Source: Escherichia coli O157:H7 (GTDB lineage Bacteria; Pseudomonadota; Gammaproteobacteria; Enterobacterales; Enterobacteriaceae). From it: DNA of 64,000 bases. A program made the position numbers. The stretch lies in assembly GCF_013167455.1 (NCBI RefSeq), contig NZ_CP038328.1; one strand, given 5' to 3'. Below are positions 51,001-54,000 of this stretch, in pieces; position 1 is the first letter of the stretch; each line of letters opens with the position of its first letter.

Positions 51001-54000
51001 CCCCCCATGCAGCAACGCTTGCCAGCCTAACTCCTGCGACATTGGCAAGCTTTGTTTTGCTGCCAAAAAACGCTATAGCATCAATTTTCAACATATCGAA
51101 ACCCTTAGATTTTCCTAAGGAAACTAGATCGTAGAGAAACCTAAGTCAAGAAAAATTAGAATTACCTAATATGAAAAACGAAACCTTCGGTGCTCGCCTC
51201 TTATACAGGCGAAAAAAATTAAAACTGTCTCAGGCCGCATTAGGTAAGCTGGTCAAAGTGGCTCACGTAACAATTTCTCAATGGGAAAGAGATGAAACAC
51301 AGCCAGCGGGGAAGAGATTATTCGCACTGAGCCAGGCGCTTCAGTGCTCGCCGACTTGGCTTCTTTTTGGAGATGAAGATAAGCAACCAGGCGAACCGAT
51401 CCCAGATAATCAGCCAGTCAATCTGACAGAAGATCAAAAAGAGTTGCTTCAACTGTTCGACGCACTGCCTGAGTCAGAGCAAAAGGCTCTGTTGTCAGAG
51501 ATGCGTGCTCGAGTTGAGAATTTCAACAAACTTTTTGAAGAACTACTCAAAGCTCGCAAAAGAAGCGCAAATAAATAACCCCCCTTTTTTTCGCAACTCT
51601 CTGTAATAAAAAGCACAAACTTTCAAATACTTGTGTTTTTTACATCAAGAAGCTTAGGTTTTTCTACACAAAAAGCTTGACCATAACTCTTAGGCTATTC
51701 TAAATTCCACTCATCAAGACACCGCACGGTGTTCTCAGCAAACAGTTCCGCTACCCGGCGTTAAGGGGAAGCAGAGGATTTCTCAGTGGGCGAGTCAAAC
51801 ATCAGAATGGAAGGCGTCCAGGGATCAGCAAAGAAACAGCGATGGCGCTTTATATTGATATCAGCGCCATTGCCGGACAGGTAAGAGTTATCAGAGCGGT
51901 AACTAAGCGGTATGCGCCTTTACTTCAGAAAGTCTCTGGTGAGTGCACCGAAGATATTGTCAACGATTTCGTCATCGAACTGCGAGGACTCATCTTCAGT
52001 TACAAGGTGACCACAATTTTTGCAGATGGCTCCCGCGAAACTGTCAGAGCCCTGCGGCTTAAAGGATGTGTCAAAGACTTAGCCACCACATTCTGGGCAA
52101 GAAAACTTGATTGTATTCATAACCAATTTCCTCTCGAGTAACAGACCCCTCAGAGGATACCACCTCGCCTGACGTGGTTAAAAAGCAGGCAACGCTAACC
52201 ACAAGGAGCCGACATGCAGAAACGAGACCCCGTCATCATCGCGCCAGACTATACCGATGATGAACTTTATGAGTGGATGCACCAGAAAATTAAGGCGGTG
52301 CAGGACCTGAAATGGGCCAATGAAGCCAGGGCTAAGCAGGCTGAAAATCTGTCCGCTCTGGAGCAGGATATCACCAATCTGGAAAAAGCAGCGGCATTAA
52401 GCATTGCCAGAATGATTACATACCCACGTTAATAGCTAACCAACGAGGCTAATAATGGAATTTAAAGATTTACCAACGCCATTACAGGAAATGGCATCGA
52501 ATATAGTTCGTTCACAACTGGCTACTCTTGACCTTAGTACCGCAGAAAAAGAAACCATCGATAATATGGTTCGTAATGTGCGCAATGCTTTTTCTGGGCT
52601 ATATGGTTCTGATAATCAAAAGCAGGAAAGCGATGTTAATAAACGGGTAATTTCTGTTTGCGTGAATGGCCATGTTCTTTCATCAATCAAAACAGAAACG
52701 GCGACAGTCTTCGATTGCCTTTGCATTGTACAGAGCCTTGTTGATGCCCTGTTTCGTTCAGTGAATTTAGAAAATGATGCAAATCTGCGAGGGCGCATAA
52801 TAGCACATCCATATGCACATACTTTAGGCTCTGTGGATATCAAAGATCCCACAAATCTTTAATGAAATAGTTAACGCGAATTGTACTTGCTCTTTCGGTT
52901 GCTTTCAGAATACGCGTTGAAACTGCTGGCGGTAATTTGGTATTCCATTTATTAAAATCATGCCCGGGAAAGTACTCTTCGAAAATACTTTTAACTGCAG
53001 ACTCGCCTATTGAAATGCTGCTTACCATGCGATTTTGATAAAGGCATTTAGCAATAAGAGTTGATTTTAACATTCACCCTCCTGAGGGTTGGTAATTAAG
53101 GAGTTCTCCACGGGTGAAGTGGAGTGCGTGCGCCGGACACGGGTGAACATCCGGCACTGACAGTTTACTGAAAGGATATTTCTCTGAAAAGTCAGAGCAT
53201 AACGCGAAAGCGCACGGCGAGGTTGCTGGTTCATAGATAGCCTGTCGTTAAATTTTCGTCGACCGTGCGCTTCCGGTTGTGGCACTCCGCGAAATGGCGC
53301 AGCGGTAAGTATGGCGGGGTTATTCCTTCCCCGTTGAGGACACCGGGTTGTCAGGTTGACCATACGCTTAAGTGACAACCCCGCTGCAACGCCCTCTGTT
53401 ATCAATTTTCTGGTGACGTTTGGCGGCATCTGTTTGCCCATGAACTGATGTCCGCCCTTTTTAAAGTGAATTTTGTGATGCAGTGAATGCGGCTAAGCGC
53501 ACGCGGAACAGTTAAAGCTAAAAACAGTGTTATGGGTGGATTCTCTGTATCCGGCGTTAATTGTTAACTGGTTAACGTCACCTGGAGGCACCAGGCACCG
53601 CATCACAAAATTCATTGTTGAGGACGCGATAATGGAAACGTTATTACCAAACGTTAATACGTCTGAAGGTTGTTTTGAAATTGGTGTCACTATCAGTAAC
53701 CCTGTATTTACTGAAGATGCCATTAACAAGAGAAAACACGAACGGGAGTTATTAAATAAAATATGCATTCTTTCAATGCTGGCCCGTTTACGTCCGATAC
53801 AAAAAGGATGCTGGCAATGAATACAGCATTTGCACTTGTTCTGACAGTTTTTCTTGTTTCCGGAGAGCCAGTTGATATTGCAGTCAGTGTTCACAGGACA
53901 ATGCAGGAGTGTGTGACTGCAGCAACCGAACAGAAAATTCCCGGTAACTGTTACCCTGTCGATAAAGTTATTCACCAGGATAATAACGAAATCCCGGCAG

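Follow-up and report, generated by a model that had tools for sequence, protein, structure and literature searches.

A conserved pair of convergent, overlapping genes in the early-left operon of a Qin-like prophage of Escherichia coli O157:H7

Which genes lie between the repressor gene and dicF in a Qin-like prophage of Escherichia coli O157:H7, and what might they do? The DNA in question is part of a 64,000-nt stretch of E. coli O157:H7, called the window here; coordinates are those of the window unless they follow an L-number, which denotes a compared locus. Between about 50.8 and 54.2 kb, the window covers the immunity and early-left region of a lambdoid prophage that is inserted next to ompW; this DNA is 100% identical to E. 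coli O157:H7 chromosomes. A preliminary description of this DNA had listed four uncharacterised genes in the interval, regarded them as possible superinfection-exclusion or abortive-infection cargo, and suggested that the convergent pair among them could be toxin/antitoxin-like or antisense-regulated. We found that the interval makes up the part nearest the promoter in the early-left (dicBF, PL-type) operon of this Qin-like lambdoid prophage, and that it holds one known gene, one replacement and one two-gene cassette rather than four equivalent unknown genes. The C-terminal part of one cassette gene (A below) and the other cassette gene (B) recur together as a conserved unit whose convergent 3' ends overlap.

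The four open reading frames (ORFs) of 99, 72, 135 and 77 aa were confirmed by reading of the sequence and by RefSeq, which annotates the same four coding sequences in the identical O157:H7 region. ORF1, the first gene of the operon (51842..52141), ORF2 (52214..52432) and ORF3 (52455..52862) are on the plus strand, and ORF4 (52840..53073) is convergent with them on the minus strand. The 3' ends of ORF3 and ORF4 overlap by 23 bp (52840..52862), a stretch that is coding on both strands (..IKDPTNL and stop on the plus strand, ..FIKDLWDL and stop on the minus strand). ORF4 has the strong ribosome-binding site noticed earlier, a Shine-Dalgarno sequence AGGAGGG located 4 nt ahead of the ATG. Each of the four proteins matched a PHROG family end to end (E 1e-39 to 5e-67; PHROG functions unknown), and relatives in other genera were obtained for all three ORFs searched (ORF1, ORF3, and ORF4). 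Because of the RefSeq annotation, the end-to-end PHROG matches, the relatives elsewhere and a predicted local distance difference test (pLDDT) score of 97.3 for the ORF4 model, these are not chance ORFs.

Comparison with the Qin prophage of E. coli K-12 separated the four genes into three kinds. The K-12 order is dicA, ydfA (51 aa), ydfB (42 aa), ydfC (72 aa), dicF, dicB, and ydfD, so the earlier statement that the K-12 dicA-dicF interval holds only three small genes was correct. ORF2 was 95% identical to K-12 ydfC at the nucleotide level over 239 bp (blastn), occupies the same position upstream of dicF, is named "protein YdfC" by RefSeq and matched phrog_1744 (E 9e-39, residues 1-68 of 68); it is ydfC itself, and its product is a predicted coiled coil. 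K-12 ydfA and ydfB gave no blastn match in the window, and their place is taken by ORF1, which belongs to an unrelated family (phrog_21318, E 4.6e-67), has relatives of 58-63% identity in Klebsiella and Citrobacter, and had no match in Pfam, NCBIfam, PADLOC, or the PDB. The segments 52214-52452 and 53087-54200 aligned with adjoining K-12 DNA with clean junctions (L002 3324-3562 and 3563-4678; blastn), indicating that 52453-53086 is a 634-bp block that K-12 Qin lacks at exactly that point. This block is the cassette that carries ORF3 and ORF4. The DicA-family repressor, the leader, ydfC, the dicF leader, dicF, and dicB are common to both prophages, with approximately 94-95% nucleotide identity downstream of the repressor gene (95% for the dicBF leader at 51712-51770). 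The window differs from K-12 in having ORF1 in place of ydfA and ydfB, in having the ORF3/ORF4 cassette between ydfC and the dicF leader, and in a dicC-dicA region that is only about 70% identical (blastn). The earlier list of four uncharacterised genes thus needs one correction, ORF2 being ydfC.

The evidence that ORF3 and ORF4 belong together comes from their occurrence in other phages. ORF3 is a fusion of a prophage module (residues 1 to about 55) and a C-terminal core of about 75 aa (residues from about 58 to 135; 52626..52862, +), which is homologous to stand-alone genes; this core is termed the A core, or A where it is a gene of its own, and ORF4 is termed B. All 84 loci recovered with B-derived patterns had a convergent A ending inside B, with an overlap of 23 bp in 78 and of 26 bp in six. 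Independently, A-derived patterns recovered 66 loci, and in 62 of them a convergent B-like gene overlapped A by 23-102 bp. In Serratia, Dickeya, and Klebsiella, B is convergent with an A of 77-79 aa, the overlap is the same 23 bp, and the pair lies right beside the repressor gene. Remote pairs of about 30% identity, from Burkholderia ambifaria, a Pseudoduganella-like genome, and metagenome contigs, keep the arrangement, with overlaps of 23-29 bp in four pairs (L172-L175) and of 119 bp as called in L177. The pair always adjoins the phage repressor or cro; Burkholderia and Pseudoduganella pairs follow cro, and enteric pairs are on the PL side. Of 5,426 complete E. coli genomes, about 550 carry the pair, which also occurs in phages of at least ten genera.

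The arrangement was also tallied in a census of 106 A-containing loci. A was followed by convergent B in 79 loci; a YdfC-A fusion was followed by convergent B in seven; YdfC, A and convergent B stood in this order in eight, and YdfC followed the pair in four. B was missing from loci in which A preceded an ORF1 relative (one), was fused to an ORF1 relative (one) or stood alone (two). Among the remaining four loci, the hidden Markov model used for the census found no A in three, and one was irregular. A 34-aa "truncated A" called in L068, L071, and L080 was rejected as an artefact of admitting only ATG starts, A being intact there with a GTG start. In L076 and L077, two E. coli viral contigs, ORF4 is frameshifted and ORF3 is intact. 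The libraries and the literature searched contained no description of the A and B families or of their conserved convergent overlap, and no papers were found for the four WP accessions. The kind of arrangement, namely an antisense accessory gene in an early-left operon or an antisense gene pair beside a repressor, is already known.

Where does such a pair sit in a lambdoid prophage? In lambda, N abuts the convergent sieB; in Rac, ydaF (YdfA family, DUF1391) overlaps the convergent sieB by 4 bp; and in e14, ymfJ overlaps the convergent ymfI by 63 bp. Judged by this analogy of position, B occupies the classical sieB-type slot. In E. coli prophages of the dicBF type, the slot after the gene with the N-terminal module is filled by at least seven alternative convergent genes: B with 77 aa, proteins of 63 aa and 91 aa, two different proteins of 73 aa, a YmfI-family protein of 104 aa (L111; NCBIfam NF051477, E 9e-32), and a 148-aa membrane protein; in other prophages it is empty. 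B, the 63-aa gene (L089), the 91-aa gene (L112), and one of the two 73-aa genes (L137) have their ribosome-binding site and upstream DNA in common. The 148-aa protein (L106 3454-3900, -) has two transmembrane segments and a weak SLATT match (PADLOC RTasSLATT, E 0.002; phrog_6315), and it is a candidate abortive-infection effector. This polymorphism, together with sieB in lambda and Rac and ymfI in e14, bears out the idea that the position carries variable accessory cargo; it supports the positional argument, not any specific function. In K-12 Rac, an annotated small RNA (sRNA), kilS, lies between kilR and sieB on the early-left strand (L244 1906-2003), just beyond the sieB slot, a position that recalls that of dicF beyond ORF4.

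Among known systems, sieB of lambda, P22, and Rac is the closest in layout. SieB is a membrane protein, and its gene, a superinfection-exclusion or abortive-infection gene, is driven by a separate promoter within the PL operon. Lysogens express sieB, and Esc together with the sas antisense RNA lets the phage evade the SieB that it encodes itself. ORF4 likewise is antisense to the early-left operon, converges with a promoter-proximal early gene and overlaps its 3' end, and the ydaF gene that overlaps sieB in Rac belongs to the family that ORF1 replaces in the window. The two differ in that no sequence or fold relationship was detected between SieB (162 aa in Rac, 184 aa in lambda) and the soluble, five-helix, 77-aa ORF4 product, for which a Pfam search even at E<=10 and searches with 64 members of its family returned no match, SieB included. 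Moreover, no partner is conserved with sieB, whereas an A core accompanies ORF4 almost invariably. The sas antisense RNA is mentioned in PMC7067206.

A second parallel is the tha/ith unit of Staphylococcus aureus prophages, a defence gene beside cI overlapped in antisense by a small inhibitor gene; expression of the two alternates between lysogeny and lysis, and one product inhibits the other, which prevents self-targeting (Rostol et al. 2024, PMC11087260). ORF3 and ORF4 resemble it as a two-gene unit beside the prophage repressor with antisense overlap. The polarity is reversed, however, since in tha/ith it is the effector gene that is carried on the cI transcript, with the small inhibitor encoded antisense to it; Tha belongs to the HEPN proteins, whereas no domain was recognised in ORF1-4 and no homology was found. 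The e14 ymfJ/ymfI locus has the same order of repressor, first early-left gene and overlapping convergent gene, and a YmfI-family gene fills the ORF4 slot in L111, although the sequences are unrelated to ORF3 and ORF4.

From the analogy with sieB/esc and with the noncontiguous tha/ith operon, we propose, with a probability of about 0.38, that the lysogen produces B and that induction turns B off in two ways, through opposing early transcription and through the A-core protein. While the prophage is dormant, the early-left promoter would be shut and B could be transcribed from its own signals, acting for the lysogen, most likely by excluding other phages or interfering with them. Once the prophage is induced, transcription from the early-left promoter would run head-on through B and silence it by polymerase collision and antisense pairing. 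It would also yield the A-core protein, perhaps acting together with YdfC and ORF1, as a counter-factor by which the phage overcomes its own B. A wider and more tentative proposal is that A/B could be a two-component system, common among temperate phages of Beta- and Gammaproteobacteria and so far undescribed, in which a small lysogen effector B (for exclusion, defence or another lysogen role) and an early lytic counter-factor A would be wired into the lysis-lysogeny switch by their 3' overlap; in O157:H7, where the pair is embedded in the dicF precursor, it could also tune DicF/DicB output.

Several results weigh against the proposed silencing and counteraction of B. B has no membrane segment, catalytic motif, PADLOC match or structural relative, and nothing about it points directly to defence. 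No sigma-70-like promoter was detected upstream of ORF4 in the window, either by consensus scan or by eye. The upstream DNA is just as well conserved in K-12, where a convergent gene is absent, and hence offers no promoter signal specific to ORF4; the upstream element described below for other genera is missing from the E. coli copy. Less heavily, an AlphaFold model of A-(GGGGS)6-B built from 21 paired sequences, a shallow alignment with an artificial linker, gave a predicted template modelling score of 0.45 and no confident A-B packing. The A core also occurs with another convergent gene (a 201-aa variant with the 63-aa gene), with ORF1 replacing B (L182 and L193) or alone (L209 and L233), indicating that A is not strictly dependent on B. 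Near-identical B genes occur with A cores that are about 50% different (L003 versus L085), which counts against tight specificity between the A core and B. Finally, physical overlap alone would hold the two genes together over short evolutionary distances.

The last points lead to an explanation that needs no functional link, in which ORF4 arrived as an independent moron in the sieB-type slot, beside an early gene, ORF3, to which it is unrelated, and the two travel together only through their 3' overlap. In E. coli, the exchange boundaries fall in the ORF3 N-terminal module and in the shared upstream region of the convergent genes, so that one block moves; unrelated gene pairs have the same geometry in lambda, Rac, and e14, no docking was predicted, and similar B genes stand beside divergent A cores. 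It accounts less well for a pair that persists down to about 30% identity in phages of beta- and gamma-proteobacteria with differing flanks (the PL side versus after cro), for a co-occurrence of 94-100% from either side, and for a pairing that holds although the overlap ranges between 23 and 102 bp among subfamilies. We consider this explanation unlikely.

What kind of protein does the forward gene encode? The N-terminal module of ORF3 ("MEFKDLP...", 52455..52619, +) was delimited from PHROG matches and relatives. Residues 1-63 matched phrog_6937, phrog_2151, phrog_9419, and phrog_33007, and the module is common to E. coli prophage proteins with at least seven different C-termini; relatives that share only this module have 106, 109, 122, 124, 133, 137, 201, 208, and 212 aa. 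The A core has stand-alone homologues of 76-107 aa in Serratia, Dickeya, and Klebsiella, and phrog_23433 spans ORF3 residues 55-128. It was modelled by AlphaFold, in the linker-fused construct, as a beta-hairpin and two helices (pLDDT 72-76) with a tail of pLDDT below 50; despite its low model confidence, the tail has a conserved motif, LE.EAN..G[KR]T..H. Nine A cores gave no Pfam match, and the A core gave no PDB match. In the Serratia and Klebsiella loci, the cI terminator and a strong promoter (TTGACG-16-TAAACT) are followed first by A, which stands where N does in lambda.

The A core is also connected with the two genes that precede it in the window. In the 193-aa protein of L072, YdfC is fused to the A core, with phrog_1744 and phrog_23433 matching in one protein (BLASTP 35% identity, E 1e-9). 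In L182 (about 2477-3040) an ORF1 relative directly follows the A core, in L193 (2447-3007) an ORF1 relative is fused to it, and B is absent from both. These fusions link the four genes evolutionarily: ORF1, YdfC, and the A core are linked through fusion and neighbourhood, and B is linked to A through the overlap. YdfC, ORF1, and the A core probably act together. The four genes do not form a single block of uncharacterised cargo; ORF1, YdfC, and the ORF3 core are genes of the early operon, tied by fusions elsewhere, and ORF1, ydfC, and ORF3 are early genes repressed by the DicA-like repressor. A 156-aa variant of A (L066 4212-4682, -; AlphaFold database entry A0AAE7I087) has an N-terminal ClpX-type zinc-binding motif (CHFC...CSDC), implying that the A core accepts several N-terminal domains, namely the MEFKDLP module, YdfC, and ClpX-ZB. 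A convergent zinc-ribbon-like protein (..CPECSGEIFD..CGSCGH..) is encoded nearby on the other strand in L182 and L193. In the Klebsiella loci L246 and L247 (3501-3782), the ORF1 relative is on the other arm, right after cro in the cII position and ahead of replication genes.

The convergent gene is under strong protein-level constraint. B was predicted by AlphaFold to be a compact, all-helical globule of five helices (pLDDT 97.3); it has 27 invariant residues and, across 157 clusters, a constant length of approximately 75-78 aa, and the mean column identity is 75% for B versus 66% for A. Profile, structure and defence-catalogue searches, which had been put forward as the way to identify these genes, gave no match in Pfam, NCBIfam, PADLOC, the PDB or Foldseek that points to a function. 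Specifically, ORF1-4 matched none of the PADLOC-DB 2.0 families at E<=1 and no Pfam or NCBIfam family, the PDB was negative by sequence and by profile search, and the A-linker-B model had no PDB match by Foldseek. The earlier idea about the convergent pair thus stood in that the pair is a real, conserved two-gene unit; its suggested toxin/antitoxin or defence role received no support from PADLOC, Pfam, or NCBIfam, nor from confident A-B docking.

The roles of the two proteins could also be the reverse of those proposed above, with the early proteins (the A core, YdfC, and ORF1) being harmful host-takeover factors like Kil, DicB, and DicF, and B being the lysogen's antidote to their leaky expression. 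Toxic genes are known from the dicBF operon, and a fraction of cells activate dicBp spontaneously (PMC10448788). In the predicted structure, A has an antitoxin-like or effector-like build, with a small folded core and a conserved low-confidence tail; its linkage to B is tight, and B is the more conserved partner. As in type II toxin-antitoxin systems, two small prophage genes are linked, many antitoxins have a small folded domain with such a tail, and L090 carries paaA2-parE in the same interval. Such systems are co-transcribed, however, and A and B are convergent on opposite strands in all 84 and 62 loci; searches of Pfam, NCBIfam, and PADLOC returned no relevant toxin or antitoxin family, and the PDB gave no match by sequence or fold. 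No A-B docking was predicted, several loci have A without B, and the frameshifted B beside an intact A in L076 and L077 would be costly if A were toxic. Reversed roles are, in our judgement, quite unlikely.

Does B have expression signals of its own, as the proposed lysogenic expression of B would require? In E. coli, the cassette contributes just 13 nt ahead of ORF4, the rest of the upstream DNA being dicF leader; no differential conservation of this DNA was seen relative to loci without a convergent gene. In non-E. coli loci, on the other hand, a conserved noncoding element of about 70 nt lies upstream of B, consisting of GCCTG..CCAC..CAGGC..GGTGGTATC followed by a hairpin, and B therefore appears to carry its own signals in these genera. 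In L067 (3930-4000), L074 (3930-4000), and L005 (4930-5000), the element contains the nested repeats GCCTG..CCAC..CAGGC..GGTGG. The arms of the hairpin covary (UCUUGG/CCAAGA, UCCUUG/CAAGGA, UCUCUU/AAGAGA, and UCCUUC/GAAGGA), and the 3' arm overlaps the Shine-Dalgarno sequence. The hairpin was derived from folds of the individual sequences, since RNAalifold on the MAFFT alignment misaligned the 3' arm owing to differences in loop length. The element had no Rfam match. It may be an operator or an RNA switch, and a comparison of sense and antisense fold energies did not point to one acting strand.

The upstream side of the operon is well defined. The repressor gene (51171..51578, +) encodes a 135-aa protein, the CI analogue of the prophage, which matched NCBIfam NF007257, "transcriptional repressor DicA", with 241.6 bits against a cut-off of 101 (E 1.6e-72), so that its earlier recognition as DicA-like was right. 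Its divergent partner is annotated as a Cro/CI-family gene, giving the repressor and divergent cro-like gene of a Qin-type immunity region. A promoter scan located a dicBp-type early-left promoter, TTGACC-18-TAAATT (51677-51706), with two CTTAGG operator-like half-sites at 51653 and 51689 (the whole spanning 51653..51706, +); these are the copies behind the second operator-like site that had been placed near 51650-51720. The hexamer CTTAGG occurs nine times in the 64-kb window against 18.6 expected, and four of the nine copies (51114, 51140, 51653, and 51689) bracket the dicC/dicA intergenic region and this promoter. From the sequence, the clustered copies are operator-like and are placed as expected for operators.

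On the downstream side, dicF (53408..53457, +) was recognised by a match to the full Rfam model RF00039 with 43.5 bits (E 5e-7), under the gathering score of 48, and by K-12 identity: its environs (53087-54200) are 94% identical to K-12 Qin, and the annotated K-12 dicF lies inside the matching stretch. Two non-standard pairs are present in the terminator stem of the window dicF. Several dicF copies are present in O157:H7, of which that in the window may be a variant. The gene for the cell-division inhibitor DicB follows in the same operon (53632..53820, +; RefSeq on the identical region; translation METLLPNVNTSEG...). A further sub-threshold Rfam match, to STnc100 (53446-53651, +; 32.5 bits against a gathering score of 47, E 4e-4), bridges the 3' end of dicF and the start of dicB. 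An ORF of 124 aa at 53067-53441 on the minus strand, which is antisense to the dicF leader and dicF and ends at the start of ORF4, was rejected as probably spurious, as the DNA is 94% identical in K-12 and no gene is annotated there.

In K-12, DicF is processed from a transcript starting at dicBp (PMC10448788); here, such a transcript must cross ORF1, ydfC, ORF3, and the antisense ORF4, and any B transcript would be antisense to the DicF precursor. This layout raises the question of whether the transcription itself, rather than the protein, matters: convergent transcription might interfere with, and be antisense to, leaky early-left transcripts, guard the lysogen from DicF/DicB (or Kil) and sharpen the switch, the protein being secondary. 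Such antisense control has been described for lambda oop/cII and for the convergent promoters of phage 186. In lambda, Rac, and the window prophage, the slot separates the early promoter from the division inhibitors (kil, kilR, dicF/dicB), and many unrelated genes can fill it. In the window, DicF would have to be excised from RNA that spans the cassette (PMC10448788), and antisense interference is documented for tha/ith (PMC11087260). Such a brake is nevertheless improbable, given the strong constraint on the B protein (27 invariant residues, pLDDT 97, and constant length), the K-12 Qin prophage and a common "124-aa only" E. coli variant that manage without a convergent gene, and the fact that no promoter was identified.

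If A and B are an effector and its counter-factor, as proposed above, the pair would be a proteobacterial counterpart of tha/ith, and the at least seven alternative slot genes would be a place to seek phage-exclusion functions. Lambdoid prophages classically keep lysogen-expressed genes in the sieB-type slot, which has nevertheless been little explored; here it holds a pair that is absent from domain and defence catalogues. Since the cassette is inside the DicF-yielding transcript, an antisense gene could change the DicF/DicB output of the window copy of the prophage; DicF reportedly affects virulence regulation in enterohaemorrhagic E. coli. The fusions among YdfC, ORF1, and the A core provide a first functional lead for the long-uncharacterised ydf genes.

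Three further observations concern the surroundings. In L090 (2694-3172), a sister E. coli prophage, the PaaA2/ParE toxin-antitoxin pair is located between the repressor gene and ydfA, a second cargo site in the interval. In the window, the right immunity arm (50332-50883, -, and neighbours) contains a YdaT-family gene, a DnaT-like replication gene, and lambda-P-like genes. Farther along the prophage, RefSeq annotation of the identical region includes paa (adhesin), hokD, and a copy of IS1203.

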